Shown: positions 14,611 through 60,449 of the stretch, piece by piece
How positions within the stretch are numbered: the first letter of the stretch is position 1
How the letters are laid out: the number at the start of each line of letters is the position of its first letter
Origin: Amoebophrya sp. A120
Lineage: Eukaryota; Protista; Dinoflagellata
Direction: 5' to 3'
Length of the DNA stretch: 64,000 nucleotides
Assembly (NCBI GenBank): GCA_905178155.1
Contig: CAJINV010000028.1
Span: forward strand, 169,235 to 233,234
The notes under the pieces: model-generated
Seen by the model: only the letters and a program-made list of their open reading frames with translations
Told to the model about the DNA's origin: nothing
Database searches by the model: none
Translations under genes and position numbers: made by a program

Positions 14611-14667
14611 TGAACAAAAACAATCTGATTGGCGGTGAGTCACCGCCAATCAGATTGTTTTTGTTCA
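14611..14667. repeat. Perfect 57-bp palindrome (28-bp arms, 1-nt centre)
   Basis: tgaacaaaaacaatctgattggcggtga-g-tcaccgccaatcagattgtttttgttca. Confidence 0.97.
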
Positions 14668-15318
14668 CCGTGACTAGCGTCAGCTCGTGCAGGTAGCAAG
14701 TTCTGTTCTTATTCGTGTCTGCTGTGTGGTCACTTCTACTTCTAGCTGCTTTATCGGGATTTTCGTTCATTTGTTCCCGAGAGGCTCCTCCCCGAACGGT
14801 GACGACAAGCAAACCGCTGCGAGAAAACTGTGGCAACCACAATGTGAACCTGGAGTGCAAACGAACACGAAAACCGTGGACCTGCGCGTCATCCTGTCTT
14901 TATTTTGAGAAGCTATTTTTGTTCGTGTCTTCCCTGCTCCTCTTTCGCTCCACACGCGCGACCCGGCGAGCCGCCATGGCTGGTTGCACATCTTACCAGC
15001 CGGCCCTCTCACTCTCAAAGCCGTCTCGCTGCCAAAATGCCCGCGCTCGAGCCTTTTCATCTTACGAGCCGGTCTCTCAGTTCGCGCAGCTGCGGAAGAC
15101 GCCGCTCCACTGCTGGCTGCAAGCGCAGCTGTTCAAGTTGCTCGCCTGCTGAAGCTCCTGCTTTCGCTCACTTTTGCTCTCCAGCTCGCTGCGCGTGATG
15201 CTTTTTCGCAACGAGCGCACACAAACACAGCACAGAAACAAAAGACGCCGCGTTCGTTAGGTCACGACCATGGTGTTGGTACTCAAGCAGAGAAAACGAC
15301 AACGACAAATACGGCAAC

Positions 15319-15864
15319 GGCCTGCACAAAGGCAGGCCACGGACCGCATGGTCAGAGGAGAGCTCGCCCCCGGGCAAAGATAACGAATTACCAGCACCCG
15401 GCCAGCCGCGAATGAATAGCGGCGAAGCCGGCGTGCAGACGCCCGGGGGTAAGCGGGTTACTGGCAACAGGCCCAGATGAACGTCGGGCCCGCGCCAAAG
15501 AGAGACAAAAAGCGGGCCCAGACTAGTAACATCGGGCCCGCGCAGCAGGCAGGTGCAACGGGCCAGAAAACTCGGGCCCGCCCCTTAGGCCTGGTTTGTG
15601 TGTGTAATTACTCACAGGAAGCGCGCATCGCATTCGGAGGCGCGTGTGAACGAGGGCGCCGCCCTACTAGTAAGCCTCCGGGCGGCAGGAGGGTGCACAT
15701 GCACAATGGGCAGGCCCCGCAATTGGTGCGGGGCGGCCCTGGTCGTAGGGGCGCGCCCAAAAAGGGCAGGCGCCGAAGCTGACGGGCCCACACCGCAGAC
15801 AAGCGGGGGGCCCATAATTTATATAGACAAAGGGCAAGCCCCGCAGACGACGCGGGGCGGCCCC
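15319..15864 (+). ncRNA. Putative structured RNA scaffold, copy 1
   Basis: About 11 consecutive GC-rich stem-loops, e.g. ggcctgc/gcaggcc, ccccgggc/gcccgggg, gcgggccc/gggcccgc, gccgccc/gggcggc, gccccgca/tgcggggc, ccccgc/gcgggg. G-U pairs favour the + strand. Transcription not shown. Confidence 0.6.
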
Positions 15865-15882
15865 GAAATTAAGCGACTGGCG

Positions 15883-16038
15883 AAGAGGTCCTCCAGGGTT
15901 GCCAATGTTGCACCGCGGTGGGGCCGACCGGTCCAGAAGTCAGCGGACGCCTAGGCGGCTACCTTGGACCCACTTCCCGTGGACCTTCCTCCGAGCGCCT
16001 TCCTCTTTGCCGGTCGCTGGGAAATGCGCGAAGCGATG
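15883..16038 (-). pseudogene. Variable insert 1 (same as insert 2 at 18566-18721), possible coding fragment
   Basis: Unique to cassettes 1 and 2. Minus frame reads SKVAA*ASADFWTGRPHRGATLATLEDLF; family not recognised. Confidence 0.35.
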
Positions 16039-18001
16039 GCGATTATGTCCGACGCGACGGCCGCGCATTTTGCGACAAGAAAACTTGAAGTGTCGCGCTT
16101 CATTCTGCGTCAAGTTGCAAACCGCATTACGACACTATGTGTGAAGGGTTTGTGTGATTGGATTGAATAAAAAAATGAAAATAAGTAAATAGCAGACGAA
16201 ATGAAGTAAAGTAAAGAAATGTAACATTCGATCCATTCAGAAGATTTCTACTACAACTCACCGTTGCTGGTGCCACGGCGCATGGTAAAACCTGAAAAAA
16301 AAAACAGAACCTTCTCTCTTCTCTCTGGCTTGCGGACTGTCACTCCGAGAGCACACGACGCAGCTTGCGCCGGTAGCCGTACACAGCGGTCATGTTCATC
16401 ACTCTCTGTATTGATGAAAAAAAAAAATCCCCTCGAGCCCATATGAAGCAATCAATCATTTCACTGATTTGCCCAACACATGAAAATAGGACTCTCGGCC
16501 TCGCCCGCTGATCGAAATACCCAACAAGATGGAGCGAAGTCATAGATCTACGCTAGCAACGTACTCAAACTCCGTGCTGCGGATGAAGAAACGCAGTCAT
16601 TGGGTCGCTCATTCACTCTCAGCTGCCGTCCTGTTCCATAACTGCGTGGGCTCAAAAAACATTCCAGAAAAATTTTTTAAAAAAAAAAATGAAAGGACAG
16701 TGAACTGCTGCAGAGCAAGTCCTGGTTCAGACCAGCTGAGCTACTCGCGACTCTGGGCGACTTCTTCTTCTGCAACGACGCTCCAAAAATTTACAATCAT
16801 GCTGATGGTAGTCCAGAGTATCTCCTGTCTTGTTTTGACCCGAAGCAATCCTAATCCAATTCGGGAACTTGTGTGTCCTCACAACAATCTGCTTTTGCAA
16901 GTCGTGTCACTTCTGTGATTTATTTTATCGCTGAGTTGAATCAAAATAATGCCTGCATGTTTGCGTAGTTGTCGTCCTCACGAACTCTTCCTAACAGCAC
17001 CTCCCGCCATCCTCGTCGCCAGCACTACCTTGAGCAACGGTAGTTCCAGCTATCCCGCTTCTCAGGGTCCGGGTCGGTGGAAGAAGCACGACAACAAATC
17101 TTCGGCCAACCAGCGAATGCGACGATACTATCGTCCTGGATGCACATGTGCGTCCGGTCGGCCTCTCATGGAGAAGAAGTGCAATGAGGTTTACCTCGGT
17201 CCAGAAAAACTCAGCTTTTGCGTTCTTGTTTTATCAATTAGAGCAAATCCTGCACATTTCTTGACGACGTGGGGCGGCGCCCTGAGGCGGAGGGAGGTGT
17301 ACTGAGGCGCACGATGCTGCTCCTCCGGTCGTAGGAGAAGCGGAAGCCCGCTCTTTTGGGTATCATCGCGGCAACCTGCTTCATGTCGATCAGCAATTTC
17401 GTATTCGTCCACCCGGGCGATGTATTGACTGGGACTTTTCACACTGTGACTCCTCCCCGAACAGTAGCAGGAAAAAACCGCTGCGAACCACAGTTGCGGG
17501 TCAATTACGGCAGCCGCAATGTGAACCTGGAGTGCAAACGAAAACGAAAACCGTGCACAAGTTCGTCATCATCATGTTGTTTTGAGAAGCGGCAACTATT
17601 CGTGTTTTCTCTCCACTCGCGCGACCCAGAGAGTCGCCAGGGCTGCGTGCGCAGCTTCCCGGCCAACGCTCTCACTCTCAAAAGCGTCTCCCACTCATTG
17701 TCCGTCTTATGGACCGGTCTCTCAGAATTTTGCTCACAGTGAATGATCCACATGCAAGACCTGTGGAAAACGGAAAACGCCGCTCCCCTGCTGGCTGCAA
17801 CGCAGCTGTGCAAGTTGTTCGCTTAAAGCTTCTACTTTCGCTCACTTTTGCTCTCAAGAAGCTCGATGAGTGTGATGCTTTTACCCAGAGAGCGCACACA
17901 AACACAGACACACAGATACACAAGACGCCGCGTCTGTTAGGTCACGGCCGTGTTGCTGGAACTAATAGAGACAACCAAACGACAACGACAAATACGGCAA
18001 C

Positions 18002-18547
18002 GGCCTGCACAAAGGCAGGCCACGGACCGCATGGTCAGAGGAGAGCTCGCCCCCGGGCAAAGATAACGAATTACCAGCACCCGGCCAGCCGCGAATGAAT
18101 AGCGGCGAAGCCGGCGTGCAGACGCCCGGGGGTAAGCGGGTTACTGGCAACAGGCCCAGATGAACGTCGGGCCCGCGCCAAAGAGAGACAATAAGCGGGC
18201 CCAGACTAGTAACATCGGGCCCGCGCAGCAGGCAGGTGCAACGGGCCAGAAAACTCGGGCCCGCCCCTTAGGCCTGGTTTGTGTGTGTAATTACTCACAG
18301 GAAGCGCGCATCGCATTCGGAGGCGCGTGTGAACGAGGGCGCCGCCCTACTAGTAAGCCTCCGGGCGGCAGGAGGGTGCACATGCACAATGGGCAGGCCC
18401 CGCAATTGGTGCGGGGCGGCCCTGGTCGTAGGGGCGCGCCCAAAAAGGGCAGGCGCCGAAGCTGACGGGCCCACACCGCAGACAAGCGGGGGGCCCATAA
18501 TTTATATAGACAAAGGGCAAGCCCCGCAGACGACGCGGGGCGGCCCC
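18002..18547 (+). ncRNA. Putative structured RNA scaffold, copy 2
   Basis: Near-identical to copy 1. Confidence 0.6.
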
Positions 18548-20685
18548 GAAATTAAGCGACTGGCGAAGAGGTCCTCCAGGGTTGCCAATGTTGCACCGCG
18601 GTGGAGCCGACCGGTCCAGAAGTCAGCGGACGCCTAGGCGGCTACCTTGGACCCACTTCCCGTGGACCTTCCTCCAAGCGCCTTCCTCTTTGCCGGTCGC
18701 TGGGAAATGCGCGAAGCGATGGCGATTATGTCCGACGCGACGGCCGCGCATTTTGCGACAAGAAAACTTGAAGTGTCGCGCTTCATTCTGCGTCAAGTTG
18801 CAAACCGCATTACGACACTATGTGTGAAGGGTTTGTGTGATTGGATTGAATAAAAAAATGAAAATAAGTAAATAGCAGACGAAATGAAGTAAAGTAAAGA
18901 AATGTAAACATTCGATCCATTCAGAAGATTTCTACTACAACTCACCGTTGCTGGTGCCACGGCGCATGGTAAAACCTGAAAAAAAAAACAGAACCTTCTC
19001 TCTTCTCTCTGGCTTGCGGACTGTCACTCCGAGAGCACACGACGCAGCTTGCGCCGGTAGCCGTACACAGCGGTCATGTTCATCACTCTCTGTATTGATG
19101 AAAAAAAAAAATCCCCTCGAGCCCATATGAAGCAATCAATCATTTCACTGATTTGCCCAACACATGAAAATAGGACTCTCGGCCTCGCCCGCTGATCGAA
19201 ATACCCAACAAGATGGAGCGAAGTCATAGATCTACGCTAGCAACGTACTCAAACTCCGTGCTGCGGATGAAGAAACGCAGTCATTGGGTCGCTCATTCAC
19301 TCTCAGCTGCCGTCCTGTTCCATAACTGCGTGGGCTCAAAAAACATTCCAGAAAAATTTTTTAAAAAAAAAAATGAAAGGACAGTGAACTGCTGCAGAGC
19401 AAGTCCTGGTTCAGACCAGCTGAGCTACTCGCGACTCTGGGCGACTTCTTCTTCTGCAACGACGCTCCAAAAATTTACAATCATGCTGATGGTAGTCCAG
19501 AGTATCTCCTGTCTTGTTTTGACCCGAAGCAATCCTAATCCAATTCGGGAACTTGTGTGTCCTCACAACAATCTGCTTTTGCAAGTCGTGTCACTTCTGT
19601 GATTTATTTTATCGCTGAGTTGAATCAAAATAATGCCTGCATGTTTGCGTAGTTGTCGTCCTCACGAACTCTTCCTAACAGCACCTCCCGCCATCCTCGT
19701 CGCCAGCACTACCTTGAGCAACGGTAGTTCCAGCTATCCCGCTTCTCAGGGTCCGGGTCGGTGGAAGAAGCACGACAACAAATCTTCGGCCAACCAGCGA
19801 ATGCGACGATACTATCGTCCTGGATGCACATGTGCGTCCGGTCGGCCTCTCATGGAGAAGAAGTGCAATGAGGTTTACCTCGGTCCAGAAAAACTCAGCT
19901 TTTGCGTTCTTGTTTTATCAATTAGAGCAAATCCTGCACATTTCTTGACGACGTGGGGCGGCGCCCTGAGGCGGAGGGAGGTGTACTGAGGCGCACGATG
20001 CTGCTCCTCCGGTCGTAGGAGAAGCGGAAGCCCGCTCTTTTGGGTATCATCGCGGCAACCTGCTTCATGTCGATCAGCAATTTCGTATTCGTCCACCCGG
20101 GCGATGTATTGACTGGGACTTTTCACACTGTGACTCCTCCCCGAACAGTAGCAGGAAAAAACCGCTGCGAACCACAGTTGCGGGTCAATTACGGCAGCCG
20201 CAATGTGAACCTGGAGTGCAAACGAAAACGAAAACCGTGCACAAGTTCGTCATCATCATGTTGTTTTGAGAAGCGGCAACTATTCGTGTTTTCTCTCCAC
20301 TCGCGCGACCCAGAGAGTCGCCAGGGCTGCGTGCGCAGCTTCCCGGCCAACGCTCTCACTCTCAAAAGCGTCTCCCGCTCATTGTCCGTCTTATGGACCG
20401 GTCTCTCAGAATTTTGCTCACAGTGAATGATCCACATGCAAGACCTGTGGAAAACGGAAAACGCCGCTCCCCTGCTGGCTGCAACGCAGCTGTGCAAGAT
20501 GTTCGCTTAAAGCTTCTACTTTCGCTCACTTTTGCTCTCAAGAAGCTCGATGAGTGTGATGCTTTTACCCAGAGAGCGCACACAAACACAGACACACAGA
20601 TACACAAGACACCGCGTCTGTTAGGTCACGGCCGTGTTGCTGGAACTAATAGAGACAACCAAACGACAACAACAAATACGGCAAC

Positions 20686-21229
20686 GGCCTGCACAAAGGC
20701 AGGCCACGGACCGCATGGTCAGAGGAGAGCTCGCCCCCGGGCAAAGATAACGAATTACCAGCACCCGGCCAGCCGCGAATGAATAGCGGCGAAGCCGGCG
20801 TGCAGACGCCCGGGGGTAAGCGGGTTACTGGCAACAGGCCCAGATGAACGTCGGGCCCGCGCCAAAGAGAGACAATGAGCGGGCCCAGACTAGTAACATC
20901 GGGCCCACACAGCAGGCAGGTGTAACGGGCCAGAAAAATCGGGCCCGCCCCTTGCGCCTGGCTTGTGTGTGTAATTACTCACAGGAAGCGCGCATCGCAT
21001 TCGCAGGCGCGTGTGAGTGAGGACGCCGCCCTACTAGTAATCCTCCGGGCGGCAAGAGGGTGCACAAGCACAATGGGCAGGCCCCGCAATCGGTGCGGGG
21101 CCGCCCTGGCGGAAGGCGCGCGCCCAAAAAGGGCAGGCGCCGAAGCTGACGGGCCCGCGCCGCAGGCACGCGGGGGGCCCGTTATTCATTAGACAAAGGG
21201 CAAACCCCGCAGAAGGCGCGGGGCGGCCC
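20686..21229 (+). ncRNA. Putative structured RNA scaffold, copy 3
   Basis: Same stems; changes mostly in loops and linkers. Confidence 0.6.
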
Positions 21230-21599
21230 AAAAAGCTTTGCTCTGCGCGGTGGCGGGCGCTCTTGTACTGCGTGCCGGCGGGGCCCGGACGTAGCCGAAC
21301 GGAGTCCGGGCGCCGGTCGCCGTGTACCAGGCGGCAACGCCGGGCACGCAGGTCGCCACCCTGACCGATAGGGGCACCGTTCCCGGCACCGCGGCGGCCA
21401 GGTATTCCCGCACATTGCACGGATTTCCCGCAAGATTTGCCAGACACGGTTCCACGGCAGGCACTCCCGCAAGGGCTGTGATCTTGTCCCGCAGCGTGGC
21501 TCCGGCGTTGCTGCAGGAACAGGACCCCGCGCTGGGAAAAAGTTCCTCCGAGCTGAAACGGCAACAGTATCGGAACGGGCAGCCTCTTCTCCGTTTTTC
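21230..21599 (-). pseudogene. Variable insert 3: possible tyrosine-recombinase core-binding (SAM-like) domain fragment
   Basis: Minus frame NVREYLAAAVPGTVPLSVRVATCVPGVAAWYTATGARTPF resembles the V..YL...TI....AI..WH...G...P pattern of DIRS/Crypton-type YR N-terminal domains. Confidence 0.45.
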
Positions 21600-23780
21600 C
21601 TCGAGCGGCGCAGCACGGCTTGCAGGTGGAAACGCACCACTTTGCATCGCCGGGCGAATGATGCCACAACATGCTGACTTGCTGGTCGCTGGCAAGTGCG
21701 CAGCACAGCCGCGACTGCGCGAAATGTCAGACGCGACGGCCGCGCATTTTGCAACAGGAAAATTGTCGCTCTTCATTCTGCGTGAAATTGCAAAACGTAT
21801 CACCACACTATTTGTGCAGGCTTCGTATAGTCGGGTTGAGTAAAATGAAAAATAGCAGACGAAGAAAATGATAATTCTCAAACTTGCTGTTGCTAGCACG
21901 ACGGGGCATCGTTAAGTCTGACAAAAAAAAACCAAACTTCTCTCTTCTCTCTTGCTTGCGGACTGTAACTCCAGGAGTTACAACACGAAATTATCCACCC
22001 AATTATTTGTTGCACACGGATACGACGCCTGTGCCGGTAGTCATACACAGTGGTCATGTCGTCTACCAAACATCTCGGTAGAAGTGAAAAACAAACCCGC
22101 TCAAATGAGTCATCGGTTTGCCCAACACGTGAAAAAATAGGACTCTCGGAGGTCTCTCTTCCTGATCGAACTTCCCAAGACAGCGGAGCGAAGTCATATG
22201 TCTAGACCAACACCGCACTCAAACTTCGTATTGCGCATGAGCAAGGACAGCCATCGGGTCGCTCATTCACTCTCAGGTGCCATCCTCTTCCACAAAAAAA
22301 AGCCGCGAGGAAAAAAACATTTCAGAAAAAGCCGAAAAAAAAATAGTAGCAAGGTCAAAACCGCGGGAGAACATTTCCTGGGTCAACTAACCGCGTTCAT
22401 TGCGATTGCGGGCGACAATCCCGCAAGGTGCCTCCACAAATTTACAATCATGATGAAGTTGATGCTGGTAGTCCATAGTACCCAATGTCTTTTGCTTTTC
22501 ACCTGGTTAACTGCAAGGAATTTTGTGTCACTTCCATCTACTTGTTGTGCAAGACGTGTCCTTCTAATCGCTGTGTTGAATTGATACAGTGTTTGCATAT
22601 TTGCGCCGTAGCACTGGTCCTTACAAACTCGTCCTACCACCACATCCCGCCACCCTCGTCACCAGCACCACCTCGAGCAACCGTAGTTCCAGATCCAGGT
22701 CCTCAGGGTGGAGGAAATGCGGCGGAAGACTCCGGTTGGCTGCGAGTGCGAGGGTGCCGTCGTTCTGAATGCACGTGCGGTGGTCTTCCACAGAGGTCGT
22801 GAAACGAAATCACGTGGTTTCCCGCGATCGCAGACCAGTCGTCATCCACGGTCTCAATCGTGGTGGGGCTCGCACGGCTCTTCTTCAAAGCGTCGAGAAA
22901 CTAAAGCGACAGACCGAGATGTGCAGAGGGATAAGATGGCCGTCTGAGTCGTTGTAGGTGGAGAAGACGTTTCATATTGACATCATCTTCCGTGCCGGCT
23001 TCTTGTTGAGCACCAGCTCCGTGTCCGAGCTGCCGGTCGGTGTACTACAACTCTTTGCTGGCGGCACCGTCTTATTCACATCGTGGCGTCCTCTCGTCCC
23101 CGACGGCAGATTAGAGCAAGCCGCAGCAGAAGTGGTTCAGAAATGCCGCTGCAAGGGCTCCACCGACGTTCAGCAGCTGCAGTGCACTGTGCAAACAAAG
23201 ACGGAAAACTACGGACCTCTGGTGCGTCATCATGTTCATTCGCGAAGCCTATTATGCTTCTTGGATCACCTACCCTTCTTGCTCGCTCTCCGCAAGCCGC
23301 GCAACAAGCTGCTTGCATCTCTCTTCTTCTACCCTTCTTGCTCACTCTGTCCCGGAAAAATCACGGCTCACTCAAACAGGCAACACTTCTTCGGTGCCCG
23401 CCTCACTGGTGGGGCTTCTGCCCAAACCAGTCTCTCAACCAAGAAGAAACATCTCAACGACTAAAACGAGAATCCAAATCACGCTGCGATGCAACAACAC
23501 CAGCAGGTGGGAAAATAAGCAACGCCTCACTCGTTGCTTCAGATGCACAATTTGCAAGCGCAGGTATTAATAGATGCTGTTGCCATGCTCTTGCTCCGAG
23601 CGGTCGTTGTCCTCAATATTCAGCCTTTGCGTACCACAGGAAAACAACACAAACACACGACGACATGAAAGAACAACCGCAACAAATCGACAGGCCGCCC
23701 AAAAACTTGGGTAGCGTCAGTCCTCTTGTCGGGACGGGTTTTGCGAGATTGATATCAACGACAAACACCAAAGCGGCAAG

Positions 23781-24337
23781 GGCCTGCACAACAGCAGGCC
23801 ACGGACCGCATGGTCAGAGGAGAGCTCGCCCCCGGGCAAGGATAACGAATTATCAGCACCCGGCCAGCCGCGAATGAATAGCGGCAAAGCCGGCGTGCAG
23901 ACACACGGGGGTAAGCGGGTTACTGGCAACAAGCCCAGATGAACTTCGGGCCCGCGCCAAAGAGAGACAATGAGCGGGCCCAGACTAGTAACATCGGGCC
24001 CGCACAACAGGCAGGTGCAACGGGCCAGAAATAAAATCTAAATCAGGCCCGCCCCTTGAGCCTGGCTTGTGTTGTAATTATTCACAGGAAGTGCGCATCG
24101 CATTCGCAGGCGCGTGTGAACGAGGGCGCCGCCCTACTAGTTAGTAAGCCTCCGGGCGGCACGAGGGTGCACATGCACAATGGGCAGGCCCCGCAATCGG
24201 TGCGGGGCGGCCCTGGTGATAGGGGCGCGCCCAAAAAGGGCAGGCGCCGAAGGTGTTGGGCCCGCACCGCAGACACGCGGGGGGCCCATAATCTATTAGA
24301 CAAAGGGCAAACCCCGCTGCGAACGCGGGGCGGCCCC
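23781..24337 (+). ncRNA. Putative structured RNA scaffold, copy 4
   Basis: Same stems; loop insertions (agaaataaaatctaaatca; ctagttagtaag) and altered last loop (tgcgaac). Confidence 0.6.
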
Positions 24338-24355
24338 AAAATTAAGCGACTGGCG

Positions 24356-24489
24356 GAGACGGCTGCAGGTTAGTCCATCCCGCGCGTGGTCCCGTCCGTC
24401 TTGCGATGTCTGCGCGTCCACTGAGAATGGCAACCTGTGCAGCGGAACGCCATCTCAAACGAGGGGGCGTTTTCCTCCGTTGTTTTGTT
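24356..24489 (-). pseudogene. Variable insert 4: CxxC zinc-finger-like fragment
   Basis: Minus frame APSFEMAFRCTGCHSQWTRRHRKTDG; compare MECSSCRLWWRRK in insert 8. Confidence 0.4.
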
Positions 24490-26577
24490 GAAGAGCTGGC
24501 GGCATTCAAGTGAGAAAAGCCGCCCCACTTCCAGGAGGAGACAACTTTGCCATGCGATTCGTGTGTGCGCAAACCGATGAACAAAAAACTCCTGTTGAAA
24601 GAATGTGAAGCGGATGGCAGGGCGCCAAAAAATAAAATAATCCAACTTGGGAACCGCTCAGTCTTCTTCCTCACGCAACGTTCACTGAAGACCTTGCCCA
24701 CACTCTTGCTGGTAGTCACATACAAACACGCTCATGTCCGTACTTCTGTATTGCTGAAACTGACTTCTGCGAGCTCAAGACAAGATAAACCCATCAGCGC
24801 CGGTGGTGTACTGTTCACATGAAAATGGCTGGGTCTCTCAATCTCGCCTTTGGAACTGGGTTCTCGGAATTCCAAATACAAGCAAAAAATTCAGAGTACA
24901 AGAAAGATGGCCCATTATACGCAAAAAACGCACTAAAAAATGCTTCGCTTGCGAAAACTCCTAGTACCTCGGGTCGCTCGGTCATCACTCTCAGCTACCG
25001 CCACCATCCACAGAAAAAAACGCGACGATTCAAAAAATCATTTCTCAAAAATCCGGCTCAGGTGAAAAAAAATGGCCACAGAAAAAAATATCCGAAGAAC
25101 AAATCAGTGCCAATCGACATTACAAGTAACTGCACTGTGGTCGTCTGCAGATTCATCTACAACCGAGTCGACAAATCAATGGTCTTGATGGTAAGCCGTA
25201 GCACTTGAAATGTGCAGCCTCAGACCCTTGCTACTACGTCAGAGTACTTAAGCAGCAATTTGATAAGAAAAGCAAGGTCAGCTTGGCTTTCATCTTTCGT
25301 TTTCTATTTCTAGCCGAGAGATCCCGTAATTTTTTTGTTCTTCGTCCCCGCCACGTGTACATGCTATACTTCATCTTTTCATATTTGGTGCTGGAGCAAC
25401 AGTCTGCCAAGCAGATTCGCAGATTTATTTTCTGTCCTTTTCATGTACTTTCGCAAAACAAGAACTTGTTTTCGTGCTTCTACTTAATCCCAGAGTTGCG
25501 CTATTCATCAAAATAGTCATGGTCTCTCGTCGTCGTTCTCGCACACTCTTCCTAGCTGCACCTCCCGCCATCCTCGCCGCCAGCACCGCTTCGAGCTACC
25601 ACGGTTCCAGATCCCGCTTCTCCGGGTGGAGGGAGCACGATGAGAGATTTTCGGCTAGCCTGCGGGTGCGACGACGCAAGTGCGGCCTGGATGGTCAATG
25701 CGTCCTGGATGCACATGTGCGTCCTCGTCTCGGCCTCCCATCGCGGATTGAAATGAGGTTTACGCTTACCCCGGTCCAGCGAGACTTGGTTTTCTTGTTT
25801 CATCAATTGGAGCGAGTCTTGCACGGTTCTTGACGACGCGGGGGAGCTAAAGGGCTGGAGGGAGGTGTACAGCTGAGGGAATTTAACATGAACTTGGAGG
25901 TCATAGCAGAAGTAGAAGCCGTGTCCTCTTGATGTCAACATCTTTGCGACCGCCGGGTTTATGAAGATCAGCACCTGCGTATCCGTCCCGGTTGATGTAC
26001 TCACTGGTACTTTTCACACCCTGACTTCATCTCCTCTCCGAACGGTGACGGGAAAAAAACCGCTGCGACCCAGAGTTGCAGGTCAACTGCGGCAGCCGCA
26101 ATGTTAACCTGGAGTGCAAACGAAAACGGTAAGCTTGGACAACGGCGTCATCATGTTGTTCTGAGAAGCGGTCACTTTTCATGCTTTCTCTCCGCTCGCG
26201 CGACCCGGCGAACCGCCAGCGCTGCGTGCGCAGCTTCAGTACCAGCGCTCTCACTCTCAAAAGCGTCTCCCGCTCATTGTCCGTCTTACAGACCTGTCTC
26301 TCAGAATTTCGCTCGCAGTTGTCAATGATCCAGATGCAAGATCTGCGGAAGACGCCGCTCGCCTGCTGGCTGCACTCGCAGCTGTGCAAGTTATTCGCCT
26401 AGAGCTTCTACTTTCGCTCACTACTTTTGCCCTCAAGAAGCTCGCTGCGCGTGGTGCTTTTGTGCAGAGAGCTACAGAAACACATATGTACACAGATACG
26501 AAAGACGCCGCGTTCGTTAGGTCGCAGCCGTGTGGCTGGAACTGCAGACATAAAACAACGACAACGAATACGGCAAC

Positions 26578-27123
26578 GGCCTACACAACAGCAGGCCACG
26601 GACCGCATGGTCAGAGGAGAGCTCGCCCCCAGGCAAAGATAACGAATTATCAGCACCCGGCCAGCCGCGAATGAATAGCGGCAAAGCCGGCGTGCAGACG
26701 CCCGGGGGTAAGCGGGTTACTGGCTACGGGCCCAGATGAACGTCGGGCCCGCGCCAAAGAGAGACAATGAGCGGGCCCTGACAGTAGTAACATCGGGCCC
26801 GCGCAGCAGGCAGGTGTAACGGGCCACAAAAATCGGGCCCGCCCCTTGAACCTGCCTCGTGTTGTAATTCTTCACAGGAAGCGCGCATCGCATTCGCAGG
26901 CGCGTGTGAACGAGGACGCCGCCCTACTAGTAAGCCTCCGGGCGGCAAGAGGGTGCACAAGCACAATGGGCAGGCCCCGCAATCGGTGCGGGGCGGCCCT
27001 GGCGATAGGGGCGCGCCCAAAAAGGGCAGGCGCCGAAGTTGGCGGGCCCGCACCGCAGACACGCGGGGGGCCCGTAACTCATTACACAAAGGGCAAACCC
27101 CGCAGACGGCGCGGGGCGGCCCC
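26578..27123 (+). ncRNA. Putative structured RNA scaffold, copy 5
   Basis: Same stems as the other copies. Confidence 0.6.
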
Positions 27124-27257
27124 AAACGCAAAGGCTGGAGTCTTGGCGCCGCGGTTGCGCTCGTCCTTATTCAACAACTCTCCGAGTTGAGTTCTACAAC
27201 GAACCGCCGCCCGCCACTCTATCTCAGAGAACTCCTCAGGGCTGATCGCGGCAACTG
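27124..27257 (-). pseudogene. Variable insert 5: coding-like fragment
   Basis: Minus frame AISPEEFSEIEWRAAVRCRTQLGELLNKDERNRGAK is open; LLNKDER echoes LSQDER of inserts 6 and 8. Confidence 0.4.
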
Positions 27258-29478
27258 CTCGAGCGGCGCAGCACAGCTTGCAGATGGAAACGCACCACTT
27301 TGCATCGCCGGGCAAATGATGCCGCAACGTGCTGACCTGCTGCTCGCTGGTAAATGCGCAATGCGCAATACAACCGCGACTGCGCGAAATGTCCGACTCG
27401 ACGGCCGCGCATGTTGCAACAGGAAAAGTGTCGTGCTTTATTCTGCGTCAAATTGCAAAACGTATCACCACACTATGTGTGCAGGCTTCGTTTAGTTGGG
27501 TATGGGTTGGGTGAAAAAAAAATAGCAGACGAAAGAATTTGGTAATTCGCTTCGAGAAGATCTCTCAAACCTGCTGTTGCTAGCACTCCAGGGCATTGTA
27601 AAATCTGAAAAAAAAAACAAACTTATCTGGCACGGACAGACGCCTGTGCCGGTAGTCATACACAGTGGTCATGTCGTCTATCAAACATCTCGGTAGAAGT
27701 GATGAAAACAAAAACATCGTGCTCAAATGAGTCACCGGTTTGCACATCACGTCAAATAAATAGGACTCTCGGTCTCTCTTCCTGCTCGAACTTCCCAAGA
27801 CAGCGGAGCGAAGTCATATGTCTAGACCAACACCGCACTCAAACTCAGTATTGCGGATGAGCAAAGACAACCATCGGTTCGCTCATTCACTCTCAGCTGC
27901 CATCCTCTTCCACAAAATGAAAATCAAAAAAAGTCGCGAGCGCCAGCGCGAGGAAAAAAGTATTAATATCTCAGAAAAACTCAAAAAAAAATAGTTGCAT
28001 TGACGAAACCGGTACCGCGGGAGAACAATTCCTCGGTTAACTAGTAACCGCGTTCGTTGCGATTGCGGGCGACACTCCCGCAAGCTGTAGCTGCCTCGTC
28101 CACAAATTTACAATCATGCTGAAGTTGATGCTGGTAGTCCAGAGGACCCAATGTCTTTTGCTTTTCACCTGGTTAACTGCAAGGAATTTTGTGTCACTTC
28201 CATCTACTTGTTGTGCAAGACGTGTCCTTCTTGTAATCGCTGCGTTGAATCGATACAATGAAAGCATATTTCCGCCGTAGCACTCGTCCTTACAAACTCG
28301 TCCTAGCAGCAGATCCCGCCACTCTCGTCACCAGCACCACCTCTAGCAACCGTAGTTCCAGATCCAGGTCCTCAGGGTGGAGGAAATGCGGCGAAAGACT
28401 CCCGTTGACTGCGAATGCGAGGGTGCGGTCGTTCTGAATGCACGTGTGGTGGTCTTCCCCAGAAGTCGTGAAACGAAATAGCGTGGTTTCCCGCGATTGC
28501 AGACCAGTCGTCATCCACGGTCTCAATCGCGGCAGGGTTCGCACGGTTCTTCTTCAGCGCGCCGAGGATCTGAAGCAACGGAGCGAAGCGTGCAGAGGGG
28601 TAAAATGGTCGTCTGAGTCGTTGTAGGAGAAAGAGCCGTTTCATCTTGACATCATCTTCCGCACCGGCTTCTTGTTGAGCACCAACTGCGTGTGGTCTGT
28701 GCCGGACGATGTACTACTCCCTGGCGGCGCCGTCTTCTTATTCCTATTCGCATCGTCGCGTCCTCTCTTCCACCCCGACTACACCAGAATAAAGCAATCC
28801 GCTGAAGCGGAACGGAGATGCACCGACAAGCACCCAAGCTACGTCCAGCTGCAGTGTGCTGTGCAAACGGGAACCAAGGAGCTCTGCGTCATCATGTTTA
28901 TTCCCGAAGCCAATTGTATGCTTCTTGGATCAGTTATTCTTCTTGCTCGCTCTCCGCAAGCCGCCCAAGCTGCAAACACGGCTGCTTGCATCTCTCTTCT
29001 ACCCTTTCTCCTCACTCTGTCCCGGAAAAATCACGGCTCACTCAGACAGGCAACACTTCTTTGGTGCCTGCCTCACTGGTGGGGCTCGCTTCGCTCGAGC
29101 TTCTTTGCCCAAATCAGTCTCTCAACCAAGATCAAGAAGAAGCATCTCAACAACAAGAATGAGAATCCAAATCCCTTTGCGACACAACACCACCAGCAGC
29201 AGCAGGTGGGAAAATAAGCAACGCCTCACTCGTTGCTTCAGATGCACCATTTGCAAGCGCAGGTATTAATAGATGCCGTTGCCATGCTCTTGCTCCGACT
29301 GGTCGTTGTCCTCAGTATTCAGACTTTGCGTACCACAGGAAAAAACACAAACACACGACGACATGAAAGAACAACCGCAACAAATCGAGAGGCCGCCCAA
29401 AAACTTGGGTAGCGTCAGTCCTCTTGTCGGGACGGGTTTTGCGAGATTGATATCAACGACAAACACCAAAGCGGCGAG

Positions 29479-30033
29479 GGCCTGCACAACGGCAGTCCAC
29501 GGACCGCATGATCAGAGGAGAGCTCGCCCCCGGGCAAGGATAACGAATTACGATTACCAGCACCCGGCCAGCCGCGAAACAACAGCGGCAGTGCCGGCGT
29601 GCAGACGCCCGGGGGTAAGCGGGTTACTGGCAACAGGCCCAGATGAACGTCGGGCCCGCGCCAAAGAGAGACAACGAGCGGGCCCAGACTAGTAACATCG
29701 GGCCCGCACAGCAGGCAGGTGTAACGGGCCAGAAAAATCGGGCCCGGTCCTTGAGCCTGGCTTGCGTATAGAATTACTCACAGGAAGCGCGCATCGCATT
29801 CGCAGGCGCGTGTGAGTGAGGACGCCGCCCTACTAGTTAGTAAGCCTCCGGGCGGCAAGAGGGTGCACAAGCACAATGGGCAGGCCCCGCACTCGGTGCG
29901 GGGCGGCCCTGGTGATAGGGGCGCGCCCAAAAAGGGCAGGCGCCGAAGCTGACGGGCCCGCGCCGCAGACGCGCGGGGGGCCCGTAATTCATTACACAAA
30001 GGGCACGCCCCGCCGTGAGCGCGGGGCGGCCCC
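29479..30033 (+). ncRNA. Putative structured RNA scaffold, copy 6
   Basis: Same stems; loop variants gaaacaaca and cgtgagc. Confidence 0.6.
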
Positions 30034-30455
30034 GATGTCCTGCTAGTTAGTCTGGCGACGACGCAGCGGCGGCATTGCGGGCGATCCGGCGTTCATCCTG
30101 CGAGAGTATCACACAGAAAAATACTGGCAGGCTACATTTGGAATGCAAAAATAAAGATCCAGTAGAATGGCACGAGGGCGCGCATGACAGATTTTTCTGT
30201 GTCTTTCTGTTTGCATTACAGTTATGCCCTGCCAGCTTTTTTCTGTGGGATAGAAAGTTGGCCTTCATCATACGGGTTGACTCCCCTTAGGCACTTGTAG
30301 CACCCGACCGCTAGGCGGGTCGGGTGCACCCCCGGAGGAAGTACACGGCTTGCCACAAGGCATAGCCGGCATTTTGGAGATTCCGGCTGGGGCAACCCGT
30401 AAGGGCCGGTGCCGTCATGTCCTCTTGGAGTTGCACACAGACGAACCGCCTCTTT
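30034..30455 (-). pseudogene. Variable insert 6: zinc-finger gene fragment with retained introner
   Basis: PKCRLCLVASRVLPPGVHPTRLAVGCYKCLRGVNPYDEGQL|SQDERRI; paralog of insert 8, differing largely at synonymous sites. Confidence 0.8.
30107..30252. mobile_element. TIR introner inside insert 6
   Basis: tatcacacagaaaaatactggcagg ... cctgccagcttttttctgtgggata; removing it plus 5 nt restores the frame. Confidence 0.85.
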
Positions 30456-32246
30456 TGTATAGAAGGAAAAAAACCAAACATCTCGGTAGAAGTGATGAAA
30501 ACAAGCACATCGTGCTCAAATGAGTCACCGGTTTGCTCAACACGTGAAAATAGGACTCTCGGTCCCTCTTCCTGATCGAACTTCCCAAGACAACGGAGCG
30601 AAGTCATATGTCTAGACCAACACCGCACTCAAACTCAGTATTGCGGATGAGCAAAAACAGCCATCGGGTCGCTCATTCACTCTCAGCTGCCGTCCTCTCC
30701 CACAAAATGAAAATCAAAAAAAGTCGCGAGGAAAAAAATATTAATATCTCAGAAAAACCCAAAAAAAAATAGTTGCATTGACGAAACCGCTACCGCGGGA
30801 GAACAATTCCTCGGTTAACTAGTAACCGCGTTCGTTGCGATTGCGGGCGACACTCCCGCAAGGTGTCTCCACAAATTTACAATCATGCTGAAGTTGATGC
30901 TGGTAGTCCAGAGGACCCAATGTCTTTTGCTTTTCACCTGGTTAACTGCAAGGAATTTTGTGTCACTTCCATCTACTTGTTGTGCAAGACGTGTCGTTCT
31001 TGTAATCGCTGCGTTGAACCGATACAATGAAAGCATATTTGTGCCGTAGCACTCGTCCTTACAAACTCGTCCTAGCCGCAGATCCCGCCACTCTCGTCAC
31101 CAGCACCACCTCGAGCAACCGTAGTTCCAGATCCAGGTCCTCAGGGTGGAGGAAATGCGGCGGAAGACTCCGGTTGACTTCTGCGAATGCGAGGGTGCGG
31201 TCGTTCTGAATGCGCGTGTGGTGGTCTTCCACAGAAGTCGTGAAACGAAATAACGTGGTTTCCCGCGATTGCAGAACAGGCGTCATCCACGGTCTCAATC
31301 GTGGCAGGGCTCGCACGGTTCTTCTTCAGCGCGCCGAGGAACTGAAGCAACGGACCGAGGCGTGCAGACGGGTAAGATGGTCGTCTGAGTCGTTGTAGGA
31401 AAAAGAGCCGCTTCGTCTTGACATCATCTTCCGCACAGGATTCCTATAATTGAGCACCAACTCCGTGCCCGTGCCGGTCGATGTACTACAACTCTTTGCT
31501 GGCGGCACCGTCTTATTCACATCGTGGCGTCCTCTCGTCCCCGACGGCAGATTAGAGCAAGCCGCAGCAGAAGTGGTTCAGAAATGCAGCTGCAAGGACT
31601 CCACCTACGTCCAGCTCCAGCGCACTGTGCAAACGAAGACGGAAACCTACGGACCTCTGGCGCGTCATCATGTTTATTCCTATTCGCGAAGCCAATTATG
31701 CTTCTTGGATCACCTACCCTTCTTGCTCGCTCTCCGCAAGCTGCAAACACGGGTGCTTGCATCTCTCTTCCACCCTTCGTACTCACTCTGTCCCGGAAAA
31801 ATCACGGCTCACTCAAACAGGCAACACTTCTTTGGTGTCTGCCTCATTGGTGGGGCTTCGCTCGAGCTTCTTTGCCCAAGTCAGTCTCTCAACCAAGATC
31901 AAGAAGAAGCATCTCAACAACAAGAATGAGAATCCAAATTCCGTTGCGACACAACAGCACCAGCAGCAGCAGGTGGGAAAATAAGCAACGCGTCACTCGT
32001 TGCTTCAGATGCACAATTTGCAAGCGCAGGTATTAATAGATGCCGTTGCCATGCTCTTGCTCCGAGTGGTCGTTGTCCTCAGTAATCAGACTTTGCGCAC
32101 CACAAGAAAAAAACACAAACACACGACGGCATGAAAGAACAACTGCAAAAAATCGACAGGCCGCCCAAGAACTTGGGTAGTGTCCGTCCTCTTGTCGGGA
32201 GGGGTTTTGCGAGATTGATATCAACGACAAACACCAAAGCGGCAAC

Positions 32247-32789
32247 GGCCTGCACAACAGCAGGCCGCGGACCGCATGGTCAGTGGAGAGCTCGCCCCCG
32301 GGCAAGGATAACGAATTACCAGCACCCGGCCAGCCGCGAAACAACAGCGGCAAAGCCGGCGTGCAGACGCCCGGGGGTAAGCGGGTTACTGGCAACAGGC
32401 CCAGATGGACGTCGGGCCCGCGCCAAAGAGAGACAATGAGCGGGCCCAGACTAATAACATCGGGCCCGCGCAGCAGGCAGGTGTAACGGGCCAGAAAAAT
32501 CCGGCCCGCCCCTTGCGCCTGGCTTGTGTATGTAATTACTCACAGGAAGCGCGCATCGCATTTGCAGGCGCGTGTGAGTGAGGACGCCGCCCTACTAGTT
32601 GTTAAGCCTCCGGGCGGCAAGAGGGTGCACAATGGGCAGGCCCCGCGATGGATGCGGGGCGGCCCTGGAAATAGGGGCGCGCCCAAAAAGGGCGGGCGCC
32701 GAAGCTGACGGGCCCGCGCCGCAGACACGCGGGGGGCCCGTAATTCAGCACACAAAGGGCAAGCCCCACAGACGGCGCGGGGCGGCCCC
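32247..32789 (+). ncRNA. Putative structured RNA scaffold, copy 7
   Basis: Same stems, loop variants, one stem mismatch in the last hairpin. Confidence 0.6.
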
Positions 32790-33396
32790 GAAACTAGGCG
32801 GCCGGCGGAAGCGCGCAACTATGTGGCGTCTCTCCGCAAAGAGCGCAGGGTCTTCCCCTTTGGCAGGTTAAAGACATGCCGCAGCGCTCCAAAGGATCCT
32901 GCCAGGCTTGTATGGTACAGAAAGTAGCAGTCGAGGCGGATTTGTTGGACAAAAATGGAACAGCAGAAACATCCGTCATGCTCATGGGCAAGCTCCTCCT
33001 GGCATGCTGCTTAAGCGCGGATCATTTTTCTCGATGCTTATTGTTGCACAACAAATGTGCCCCGCCTGCTCTTTTCTGCGGGATACCGCTTCGCCGCGGC
33101 CGCGCGGAAGAAGGTGGCTCGTTTGCTCGGCATGTCGGCCGAGGCCGGCCAAAGCACCCGCGTTGGGTCCCCGGTCGCTGCCAGGAGCTGCGGGTATCGA
33201 GCTGTTTATTCCCCACCGTGATGGTGATAGTACACCACGACGCCGGCTCGCACCGTTGTGCCCCAGCGCTTACACCGGAGGCATCGCAACCCGTCAGCGG
33301 ACGCCGCGGCTGGGCTATCTCCGTAAGGCCGGAGACGCCTCGGACTCGGCGGAGCCACTGGCAGGAAAATACGAATGATGTGCTGCCCGCCGTGAC
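32790..33396 (-). pseudogene. Variable insert 7: decayed tyrosine-recombinase catalytic-domain-like fragment with retained introner
   Basis: Box I-like LRP/TEIAQPR (frameshifted), VVVYYHHHGGE*TARYP, VLWP, then across the introner AKR|LAGSFGALRHVFNLPKGKTLRSLRRDAT, like the YR Box II (H/Y)SLRRGGAT. Confidence 0.55.
32911..33085. mobile_element. TIR introner inside insert 7
   Basis: tatggtacagaaagtagcag ... ctgctcttttctgcgggata (imperfect TIR). Confidence 0.7.
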
Positions 33397-34436
33397 GCGA
33401 CTATGTCCGACGCGGCGGCCGCGCATTTTGCGACAAGAAAACTTGAAGTGTCGCGCTTCATTCTGCGTCAAGTTGCAAACCGCATTACGACACTATGTGT
33501 GAAGGGTTTGTGTGATTGGATTGAAAAAAATGAAAACAAGTAAATAGCAGACGAAATGAAGTAAAGTAATATAAATGTAACATTCGAACTATTCAGAAGA
33601 TTTCTCCAACCCACCGTCGGTGGTGCCACGGCGTATGGTAAAACCTGAAAAAAAAACAAAAGCTTCTCTCTTCTCTCTAGCTTGCGGACTGTCACTCCGC
33701 GAGCACGCGACGTTCACTAAATATCTTGCACACGACGCAGTTTGCGGCGGTACCCGTACACAGCGGTCATGTCCATCACCATCTCGGTATTTATGAAAAA
33801 AAAGTTCTTCGAGCTCAAATGAGTCACTCTCACTTCACTCGTTTGCTCAACAAATAAAAAAAGGACTCTCGGTCTCGCCCCCTGATCGAAATACCCGACA
33901 ACACGGAGCGAAGTCATGTTTCTACGCCAACAACGAACTCAAACTCAGTGGTGTGGATGACGATGAAGAAACACATGCATTGGGTTGCTCATTAATTCTC
34001 AGCTGCCGCCCTCTTCCACAAGATTAAGTAACCGCGAGGGCAGCTGAAAAAAACAGCTCAGAAAAGTTCGAAAAAAAAACAACGTAAGAGGAAGAACAGC
34101 TACGGAACAATTCCTCGGTTAGGCTTACTGACTTACTTGCGTCTATCAGCGACTTCCGCAAAAGCCTCATATTTACGAATCATGTTTATGGTAGTCCAGA
34201 TTACAACGTCCGGGCTTTTCCTTTTGAGCCGACCATTCCTTGTCTCCTGTACGGAACGTCAGGTGACTTCCATCTACTTTTGCACGAAGCCGTGTCCTGT
34301 GCTTCTGCTAGCTTTCAATCAAATTCACTCAGTCGAGTCAACAAATAAACAATGCGCGCATAGTTGCGTAGTTGTCGTCCTCATAAATAAACTGTGCCTA
34401 ACAGCACCCCCCGCCGTCCTCGTCACCAGCACCATC

Positions 34437-34762
34437 TATCAAAAGGAAAAATCCCGCCTCCCCATATCAAAAGGAAGTTTCTGATGCTGGATCTGCGTAC
34501 ACAAATCAGCTTTGTATTGCAGAGAGGCACTGCGGACAGATCTCCAGGCTAGATAGGGGCGTATGCATGTGTCTAGTTGTTTAGCATGGCAAACGGCTCC
34601 CCTTTAGGCCCAACAGCATGACAAATCGCCTCTGTAATGGGGGCAAAGCTTTTGCCCCTGTCTTTTTGCAAGACAGATGTGATTTGTGACCTCAAATCAG
34701 CAACGCAAATTTTCAGAAACAGGCCTTTTCGATATGGGGAGGGGGGATTTTTCCTTACAATA
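34437..34762. mobile_element. TIR element (introner family) in the spacer of cassette 7, 5-bp TSD ccatc
   Basis: ccatc|tatcaaaaggaaaaatcccgcctcccc ... ggggagggggggatttttccttacaata|ccatc-type ends; the equivalent site is empty in other spacers (~17025, ~22665). Confidence 0.9.
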
Positions 34763-35690
34763 CCATCTCGTGCTACCGCAGTTACAGACCCCGCTTCTCA
34801 GGGTGGAGGAAGTACGACGAGAGATCTTCGGCCAACTGCAAATCCGAGGATGCGATCGTCCTGAATGCACATGTACGTCTCGGCCTCCCATCACGAAGCG
34901 AAATGAGGTTTGCCGCGGTCCGAAGCGGGTCCGCACTCTTGTTTCATCCAATAACGCAAGTTTTGCACGGTTCTTGACGACGTGAGAGCGCAGGAGGGAG
35001 TTGTTGGTGTACCGAGGGAAAAGAACATGAATGCTGGATTTCGTAGGAGAAGTAGAAGCCGTGCCTGTGTCCTCTTGATATCAACGGAGTACCTTTGTAT
35101 CCGTCCCGGTCGATGTACTCACTGGTACTTTTCACACTCTGACTTCATCTCCTCTCCGAACGGTGACAGGAAAAAAACCGCTGCGACCCAGAGTTGCAGG
35201 TCAACTGTGGCAGCCGCAATGCTAACCTGGAGTGCAAACGAAAACGGAAAACGTGGACAAGGGCGTCATCGTGTTGTTTTGAGAAGCGGTCACTTTTCGT
35301 GCTTTCTCTCCACTCGCGCGACCCGGCGAGCCGCCAGCGCTCGTGCGCAGCTTAGCGGCAACGCTCTCAGCACTCTCAAAAGCGTCTCCCGCTCATTGTC
35401 CGTCTTGCGGACCTGTCTCTCAGAATTTCGCTCGCAGTCAATGATCCAGATGCAAGATCTGCGGAAGACGCCGCTCCACCGCTGGCTGCAAGCGCAGCTG
35501 TGCAAGTTGTTCGCCTAGACCTTCTACTTTCGCTCACTTTTGCCCTCAAGAAGCTCGCTGCGCGTGGTGCTTTTGCGCAGAGAGCTACAGAAACACATAT
35601 GTACACAGATACGAAAGACGCCGCGTCCGTTAGGTCGCAGCCGTGTGGTTGGAGCTGTAGACACAAAACGACAACGACGCATGCGGCAAC

Positions 35691-36234
35691 GGCCTGCAAA
35701 CAGCAGGCCACAAACCGCATGGTCAGTGGAGAGCTCGCCCCCGGGCAAAGATAACGAATTATCAGCACCCGGCCAGCCGCGAATGAATAGCGGCGAAGCC
35801 GGCGTGCAGACGCCCGGGGGTAAGCGGGTTAATGGCAACGGGCCCAGATGAAGGTCGGGCCTGCGCCAAAGAGAGACAATGAGCGGGCCCAGACTAGTAA
35901 CATCGGGCCCGCGCAGCAGGCAGGTGTCACGGGCCAGAAAAATCGGGCCCGCCCCTTAGGCCTGGTTTGTGTATGTAATTACTCACAGGAAGCGCGCATC
36001 GCATTCGCAGGCGCGTGTGAACGAGGGCGCCGCCCTACTAGTAAGCCTCCGGGCGGCAAGAGGGTGCACATGCACAATGGGCAGGCCCCGCATTCGGTGC
36101 GGGGCGGCCTTGGCGGAAGGGGCGCGCCCAAGAAGGGCAGGCGCCGAAGCTGACGGGCCCGCACCGCAGACACGCGGGGGGCCCGTAATTTATTAGACAA
36201 AGGGCAAGCCCCGCAGATGGCGCGGGGCGGCCCC
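35691..36234 (+). ncRNA. Putative structured RNA scaffold, copy 8
   Basis: Same stems as the other copies. Confidence 0.6.
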
Positions 36235-36318
36235 AAAATTAAGCGACTGGCGGGGAAATCCTCCGAGAATTCTGCTGCGGCTATAACAGGCCACGAACCT
36301 GCGCTCGTCCTGAGAGTG

Positions 36319-36464
36319 TATCACACAGAAAAACGCTGGCAGGTTACATTTGGAATGCAAACATAAAGATCTAAGAAAATGGCACGAGGGCGCCCATGAC
36401 AGATTTTTCTGTGTATTTCTGTTTTCATCACAGTTATGTCCTGCCAGCTTTTTTTTGTGGGATA
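36319..36464. mobile_element. TIR introner inside insert 8 (same codon position as 30107-30252)
   Basis: Same TIRs and 146-bp length as the insert 6 element. Confidence 0.85.
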
Positions 36465-36622
36465 GACAACATGCCCTCGTCGAAGGGATTCACCGGCCTC
36501 AGGCAGCGGTAGCACGCGATGGTCAACCTGGTGGGGTGGATTCCCGGAGGAAGTACACGGCTTGCCACGAGGCAGAGCCGGCACTTAGGCAGAGCCGGAG
36601 GCGGAATGGTTTTGCAATGATT

Positions 36623-36746
36623 TATCCTGAGGAAAAACGTGCCCAGCACCTTCCTGTCGGTCGAATCTGCATGCGCGGAATGGTGTTCATGCGCGACAGC
36701 AGCGGGCTGGCGTTATGGTGGGGCAGGCACGTTTTTCCACGGGATA
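36623..36746. mobile_element. Second TIR introner inside insert 8
   Basis: tatcctgaggaaaaacgtgcc ... ggcacgtttttccacgggata. Confidence 0.85.
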
Positions 36747-42240: not shown

Positions 42241-42249
42241 CAAAATCAA

Positions 42250-60344: not shown

Positions 60345-60449
60345 TTACTTCTTCTTCATGGACATCTTCTTCATGGACATCTTCTTCATGGCCATCTTCT
60401 TCATGACCGGGACCGGGGCGGTAGTCATCATCTTCATCATCTTGGCCAT
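60345..60449 (-). CDS. 34-aa Met/Lys-rich micropeptide, DVNP-tail-like
   Basis: MAKMMKMMTTAPVPVMKKMAMKKMSMKKMSMKKK*, A-rich leader, paralog 640 bp away. Confidence 0.7.
   Translation of the reverse strand: MAKMMKMMTTAPVPVMKKMAMKKMSMKKMSMKKK

Follow-up and report, generated by a model that had tools for sequence, protein, structure and literature searches.

A tandem array of eight stem-constrained palindromic cores in the nuclear genome of Amoebophrya sp. A120, tentatively read as a DNA cis-element

The stretch of Amoebophrya sp. A120 DNA analysed here (64,000 nucleotides, positions 169,235 to 233,234 of contig CAJINV010000028.1 in assembly GCA_905178155.1; hereafter the window) is nuclear DNA in which a GC-rich sequence of approximately 560 bp, termed the core, recurs eight times in the same orientation within a single tandem array (Table 1). 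The cores are 89–100% alike to copy 1, follow one another at intervals of 2683–3443 bp (units of 2.7–3.4 kb) and have a GC content of 0.63–0.70 (about 65%), and the core is a mosaic of repeated words, containing GGGCCC six times, GCAGGC six times and a duplicated 37 bp hairpin. A preliminary description of this DNA had listed eight copies and quoted a number of loop variants; we confirmed all eight at the starts given in Table 1 and found every quoted variant in our alignment, and neither nhmmer nor a covariance model of the left half of the core detected a ninth in the window. The predicted stems of the core are held constant while its loops vary, and we tentatively read it as a strand-symmetric palindromic DNA cis-element, with its stem positions under selection and its copies kept alike by gene conversion.

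Homology among the spacers that separate the cores extends over most of their length, and two subfamilies can be distinguished, A (to the left of cores 1, 2, 3, 5 and 8) and B (to the left of cores 4, 6 and 7), which are 50–52% identical by global alignment and 59–66% in local blocks, compared with 77–91% within a subfamily. The left flanks of A- and B-type cores are only about 50–60% alike, and therefore no shared upstream promoter is seen, and the right flanks differ strongly among the copies. At both borders of the core the A–B identity leaps from about 0.6 to about 0.9 within about 40 bp. In addition, the spacers carry a decayed minus-strand reading frame.

Table 1. Positions in the window of the array, its cores and associated features
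Feature	Position	Strand	Remarks
Whole tandem array	14785..38118		~23 kb; 8 cores, 7 full spacers, 2 partial end units
Core 1	15310..15866		A-type left flank
Core 2	17993..18549		Hybrid: left side of core 3 and right side of core 1
Core 3	20677..21232		A-type
Core 4	23770..24340		B-type; 8/18 stem-variant letters
Core 5	26569..27125		A-type
Core 6	29471..30034		B-type
Core 7	32238..32791		B-type
Core 8	35683..36239		A-type
Predicted unequal-crossover point	18192..18193		Core 2, third hairpin, apical loop
Spacer with decayed coding-like stretch	16841..17709	− (from reading frame and neighbour genes)	Stops and frameshifts; paralogous stretches in every spacer
Spacer stretch in-frame paralogous to last TPMT exon	22663..22799	−	Also 28336-28457, 31101-31229, 34784-34866
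TPMT-family gene, intact	38013..40901	−	Intron-split (several introns are introners); last exon is the right end of the array

The distribution of variation over the predicted structure was assessed in two ways. In the first, the majority sequence was folded alone, so that variation among the copies could not steer the structure, and copy 2 was excluded because it is near-identical to copy 1. Only 21 of 248 paired columns were variable, compared with 87 of 296 unpaired columns (p=4e-10), and the same held at G/C positions alone (19/223 paired against 40/135 unpaired; p=3e-7). In the second, we used 13 local helices hand-picked from an RNAalifold result, with a metagenomic homologue (L004) added to the alignment, and found 20 of 224 stem columns to be variable compared with 112 of 320 loop columns (p=4e-13), an effect that was reached by none of 521 circular shifts. 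Four control alignments of spacers, giving eight strand-tests, showed no comparable effect, the lowest Fisher p being 0.046 with 37 of 518 shifts equally extreme. None of the 36 gap columns falls within the 13 helices, no variation occurs in bulges or inner loops, and 210 of the 224 paired bases are G or C. The variants in stems are mostly private to a single copy (16/17, compared with 67/99 in loops; p=0.038), and core 4 is possibly decaying. Relative to shuffled sequences, the core folds with z values of −6.1 on the plus strand and −6.4 on the minus strand, or −7.2 and −6.6 for the two strands with DNA parameters. These data clearly uphold the earlier statement that stems are fixed and loops are free, with the larger indels in loops, as the substitutions are far from evenly spread. 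Because the stems are constrained, and because no Rfam family accounts for the core, a functional paired element is supported.

The preliminary description had also held that the core is far better conserved than the spacers; what it missed is that much of the likeness is due to recombination between copies. A- and B-type cores are 97.7% alike in stems and 88.6% alike in loops, about equal to the values within a subfamily, and a four-gamete test on 27 informative sites found 169 of 351 site pairs in the cores to be incompatible (1/14 within 10 bp and about half beyond), compared with 3392 of 35778 pairs in the spacers. Copy 2 agrees with copy 3 in its left flank and at position 18192, and from 18193 onwards it agrees with copy 1, which, if the assembly is right, points to an unequal crossover inside a hairpin loop of core 2. 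The homologue L004, one of six metagenome pattern matches, corresponds to the window units in leader, core and flank alike, at about 90%; 16 of its minority alleles also occur in window copies, in sets that vary, and are therefore real rather than polishing errors. Its core is 0.89–0.92 identical to the window cores and its leader 0.91 to the best leader, and private changes affect 4 of its 224 stem positions and 16 of its 314 loop positions (p=0.06). Among the B copies, 17–18% of loop columns vary, compared with 16–22% of spacer columns. Loops thus drift at about the spacer rate and stems three to four times more slowly, and recombination, rather than selection alone, accounts for much of the resemblance among whole cores.

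We then considered whether the constrained pairing belongs to RNA or to DNA. The majority fold has an energy of −284 kcal/mol on the plus strand and −292 kcal/mol on the minus strand, and the 95 high-probability pairs common to both strands are all Watson–Crick. The stem substitutions comprise five that give G-U on the plus strand, ten that give G-U on the minus strand (p=0.30) and five that are mismatches on both, and the 5:10 split equals the loop background, in a test that has just 15 changes, mostly private. Assuming a 2–4-fold tolerance of G-U, the likelihood of this split is 0.20 with no strand preference, 0.002–0.05 for a plus-strand RNA and 0.03–0.15 for a minus-strand RNA. The earlier suggestion that G-U pairs point to the plus strand was thus not sustained, despite three invariant G-U pairs predicted on that strand (columns 11/499, 50/168 and 64/154). 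The G-U share of predicted pairs lies below that of shuffled sequences, at 0.03–0.08 against a mean of 0.079 (plus) and 0.07–0.09 against 0.131 (minus), and the stem/loop rate ratios are 0.24 for C>T, 0.30 for G>A and 0.12 for G/C transversions. Compensated pairs numbered 1 of 112 in the 13 helices and 2 of 161 in the RNAalifold structure, with none in a separate count over five helices, although at about 10% divergence few would be expected even for a real RNA. Only four GNRA, UNCG or CUUG tetraloops occurred in 14 folds, none of them conserved and with no enrichment.

Comparison with known families was negative throughout. Covariance models from Rfam gave no match in the 64 kb window at the gathering threshold and only chance matches of 15–21 bits in E-value mode (E<=5-10), and searches with single motifs gave the same picture. 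For U1 small nuclear RNA (snRNA), ACTTAC is in 0/8 cores on either strand, an Sm-like match is in 2/8, at the edge, and CTTAC is internal on the minus strand only. As telomerase template, CCTAAA, CTAAAC and TAAACC are in 0/8 cores and CCCCAAA in 3/8, at the border, the Amoebophrya telomere being TTTAGGG/TTTGGGG according to the genome report (PMC7789003). The dinoflagellate spliced-leader (DinoSL) sequence was not found in the cores, the CUGANGA core of hammerheads and retrozymes is in 0/8, and no U2, U5, U6 or RNase P motif is conserved in them. Of the RNA polymerase III (Pol III) signals, a B-box word is in 1/8 cores, no plus-strand T4 lies within 20–35 bp of the borders and T4 runs inside the core are on the minus strand. 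Neither a terminal CTRR nor a rolling-circle nonanucleotide is conserved at the cores, and identity with a minicircle core was rejected on GC content (0.63–0.70) and on location among spliced nuclear genes. The core thus fails membership in every named family tested, in agreement with the earlier remark that it bears no hallmark of ribosomal, SL, signal recognition particle (SRP), RNase P, snRNA or telomerase-template RNA. No description of the element was found in the literature searched, outside which lay the supplements of PMC7789003 (snRNA figures and repeat lists) and subscription papers.

The genome report states that approximately two-thirds of Amoebophrya introns are spliced at non-canonical sites and that U1 snRNA was not found (PMC7789003). 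We consider it very improbable that the core encodes a new class of structured RNA of ~560 nucleotides that replaces the missing U1 snRNA or guides the splicing of introner-derived non-canonical introns. Pairing between the core and six intron ends was not significant (best 9 nucleotides, 2/60 shuffles as good, 12 tests), and weak matches of 8–9 nucleotides between the core and two introner 5′ ends were lost after correction for 12 tests.

Contigs from four RNA runs (one sample of one study, their RNA nature proven by spliced joints) cover the core, two of them continuing past its right border into the flank, and others cover the spacers, including those on the side of the minus-strand ATG described below; the 869-nucleotide contig over the decayed coding-like stretch at 16841–17709 has no differences from it. 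Such contigs show transcription, and not strand, ends or level, and their depths (6–49 for the core, summed over copies, and 26–103 for spacers) were unused as evidence, being unable to rank gene parts. Differences between contigs and copy 8 were not taken as assembly errors or conversion, because contig building can merge copies, and three raw RNA runs, with no reads on 4000–17950, genes included, provide no test of the core. Each core lies 0.42–0.58 kb upstream of a conserved minus-strand ATG context, and all neighbouring genes that could be oriented are on the minus strand.

The spacers are related to the gene at the right end of the array. Four of them match the last exon of the TPMT-family gene at 66–70% over 83–132 bp, with in-frame protein matches in three (E 0.007–0.29). 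As a full TPMT paralogue the spacer reading frame was rejected, as a TPMT profile built from 10 relatives has no match in the spacers and the last exon alone matches; it was also rejected as an HUH transposase or Rep, for which an HVH motif had been seen by eye, with Pfam matches in 0/8 frames, NCBIfam matches at the cut-off in 0/7 and no homologue among 31 candidates. Because the spacers consist in part of degenerate copies of the end of the adjacent TPMT gene, we infer that the array expanded locally, through tandem duplication of a host interval and not through insertion of an element. Both ends of the array fall inside spacers. In a DNA run, read depth was 41–48 over single-copy stretches, 257 for the core in one contig and 397–738 in bin means, and about 200,000 for a nearby introner; depth is a rough measure and not a copy number, and from its order alone the core family is low-copy, at about ten, consistent with this array alone. 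Pattern scans returned 0 and 87 loci in viral contigs, 2 in prokaryote genomes and 6 in metagenomes, of which nhmmer over all 95 keeps L004 alone, and phage and plasmid BLAST searches gave no match. Introner- or MITE-like insertions were observed in spacer 8 (34437–34762) and to the right of cores 6, 7 and 8 (30107–30253, 33023–33086 and 36318–36464). On the right of cores 1 and 2, a variable segment is bracketed by a 17 bp inverted repeat (15872–15888/16002–16018, and 18555/18692). The left arm of this repeat is also present following cores 4 and 8, and some of the right arm is found again at 21684.

In the history that we propose, a host interval comprising the TPMT gene end, its 3′ region and the core would have been duplicated in tandem, the paralogy being observed and the order of events conjectural. 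The gene pieces decayed and the spacers split into the two old subfamilies now seen. Unequal crossover and gene conversion may have shuffled alleles inside the core, where a mosaic and one breakpoint are visible, and recombination presumably kept acting there because the core stayed alignable. Selection would remove changes in the inverted-repeat arms and spare the loops, matching the observed pattern, and the GC-rich half-sites (GGGCCC, GCAGGC and the 37 bp hairpin) are predicted to be recognized, as duplex or extruded, upstream of minus-strand units. The core would then most likely act as a platform upstream of these units, for protein binding or for the initiation of transcription, and also as the recombination substrate of the array. 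We place the element at the DNA level because the two strands fold equally, wobble is not tolerated, G-U pairs are few and no tetraloop is conserved, and also because its stems are G/C-rich, its motifs are repeated, it has no B box or plus-strand T-run and it sits upstream of a minus-strand ATG.

Several points weigh against this proposal, beyond the low power of the compensation and wobble tests. Structured RNAs have A-rich loops, and the unpaired bases of the core on the plus strand are 37% A and 16% T, with an AT skew of 0.33–0.38 on that strand compared with −0.03 +/- 0.09 in 122 background windows. Nor is it obvious why selection should have preserved the promoters of decayed genes in seven or eight copies. 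A GC island at 41560–42620, 0.7–1.7 kb upstream of the intact TPMT gene and the sole other stretch with GC >= 0.64, shows no homology to the core and no folding; as a diverged core it was rejected, with no nhmmer or covariance-model match, an alignment score at shuffle level, k-mer sharing at chance and fold z values of −0.1 to −2.1. Finally, dinoflagellate promoters use TTTT according to PMC11453091, and TTTT/TTTG boxes are not enriched on the minus strand of the core.

A close second to this reading is that the core is instead an undescribed structured non-coding RNA (ncRNA) gene of ~560 nucleotides, present in eight copies for dosage and transcribed from the plus strand or cut from a minus-strand precursor. 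Arrays of ncRNA genes usually combine a conserved core, diverged spacers and concerted evolution, and the sharp borders, the fixed stems with every indel in loops and the three invariant plus-strand G-U pairs would all suit such a gene, as would a G>C skew on the plus strand. Selection in nearly all copies fits dosage better than it fits promoters of decayed genes, and we keep the RNA explanation alive because of the A-rich plus-strand loops and the RNA contigs over the core. Against it stand the single compensated pair among 112, the rejection of G-U on both strands and its rarity relative to shuffles, the want of a conserved tetraloop, of an Rfam match and of conserved U1, Sm, U2, U5, U6, SL, telomerase, RNase P, B-box or hammerhead motifs, and the passage of RNA contigs beyond the right border rather than stopping there, though contigs cannot show ends. 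The novel ncRNA of ~550 nucleotides put forward in the preliminary description thus retains its constrained stems and its lack of an Rfam family, but its assignment as a plus-strand RNA was not demonstrated, given the single compensated pair, the intolerance of wobble on either strand and the equal folding of the two.

It is unlikely that the core has no selected function and that hairpin-templated repair or GC-biased gene conversion keeps its stems, with recombination keeping the copies alike. Recombination inside the core is extensive, the loops of B copies are about as variable as spacers and the L004 core is no closer to the window cores than its leader is to the best leader, all of which this explanation accommodates; however, had template switching removed the stem changes that are missing (roughly 58), about 29 compensated pairs would be expected where one is seen, bulges and inner loops are invariant instead of perfected, and loop G/C positions vary three to four times more than stem G/C positions, which GC-biased conversion does not predict. 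Also unlikely is an origin as the folded terminus of a non-autonomous mobile element (Helitron-like, MITE or LTR/TRIM) or as the integrated origin of a circular replicon in the style of a minicircle core. The strongly differing right flanks speak for it, as does the unit itself, which with one open reading frame (ORF) and one palindromic core in 2.7–3.4 kb resembles the plastid minicircles of dinoflagellates (PMC2665238). Yet the spacers share paralogy with the host gene next to them, the array ends inside spacers and not at core borders, the rough DNA depth puts the core at about ten copies compared with thousands for the nearby introner, no terminal CTRR or rolling-circle nonanucleotide is conserved, the spacer frames have no Pfam or NCBIfam match at threshold and no homologue, and phage and plasmid searches found nothing, with 94 of the 95 pattern loci non-homologous. 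The preliminary proposal of a folded single-stranded DNA element end was not supported, its flanks being old paralogous host sequence at low copy without a conserved terminal motif. The DNA cis-element remains the reading that we tentatively adopt.

The intact TPMT-family gene to the right of the array matches Pfam PF05724, and its spliced product is an Amoebophrya sp. A120 protein that maps exon by exon to the minus-strand interval in Table 1; a word-index homologue search with its exon 1 came back empty. Two TPMT-family proteins of Amoebophrya sp. A25 (P0009 and P0014) have gene numbers 11 apart, which hints at a duplication of the TPMT region there too. RNA contigs bridge a canonical intron at 11522–12033 and non-canonical introns at 38141–38738 and 39484–39760. 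The last of these (also 39485–39759) has inverted-repeat ends of the kind that PMC7789003 describes for introners, and the family of intron 39485–39759 has a DNA depth thousands of times the single-copy level. The same source reports gene-by-gene regulation in Amoebophrya and no sign of polycistronic co-regulation (PMC7789003), a point in favour of the cis-element reading of the core. Just left of the array, a perfect inverted repeat with 28 bp arms and a single central base (14611–14667) lies within an RNA-covered minus-strand open stretch (14426–14860). Farther away, the minus strand of 902–6361 holds an ORF of 1819 amino acids that has no Pfam family and whose residues 900–1819 have no homologue in a word-index search, and 49506–50370 is duplicated at 55493–56359 (870 bp, 95% identity), with introner-type motifs abundant. 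At 60348–60449 and ~60986–61078 the minus strand carries a tandem pair of very short ORFs rich in Met and Lys, the first without a Pfam match; we take both to resemble the N-terminus of dinoflagellate viral nucleoproteins.

To our knowledge, almost nothing is known of promoters, origins or long ncRNAs in dinoflagellates and related parasites. An element of 560 bp that has sharp borders, several copies and constrained stems offers a handle on this gap or on that of splicing in a lineage where U1 snRNA was not found. Should it act as DNA, it would give this lineage a defined platform acting in cis, and also a clear instance of concerted evolution limited to a palindromic block; should it act as RNA, it would represent a new class of large ncRNA.

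Among known systems, tandem ncRNA arrays (5S, snRNA and SL) share with the Amoebophrya array a conserved core, diverged spacers, a single head-to-tail locus, shuffled alleles and stem constraint, but the core differs from them in lacking an Rfam family, signals of Pol III or snRNA genes and wobble tolerance and in showing hardly any compensated pairs at its low divergence, and RNA from it is known from contigs alone. The plastid minicircle cores of dinoflagellates, as PMC2665238 describes them, are likewise on the scale of 250–500 bp, contain direct and inverted repeats and are shared among units of 2–3 kb with diverged coding parts; a role as origin or in recombination has been proposed for them, and double-hairpin elements of Adenoides are cited there. 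Those cores, however, are AT-rich and lie on plastid circles, whereas the Amoebophrya core is about 65% GC, nuclear and chromosomal, with spacers derived from a host gene. Introners (PMC7789003) belong to the same genome, are built on inverted repeats and are present several times in or beside the array, but they have terminal inverted repeats of 8–20 nucleotides, are intronic and number thousands, whereas the core is intergenic, multi-hairpin and present in about ten copies. The macrosatellites D4Z4 and DXZ4 and the bacterial REP/BIME mosaics offer further parallels, the former in their GC-rich tandem units of about 3 kb with an ORF remnant and a core conserved at the DNA level, the latter in their modular palindromes; the core has no sequence relation to any of them, and what is conserved in Amoebophrya is a module of ten hairpins, in a genome of the dinoflagellate lineage.

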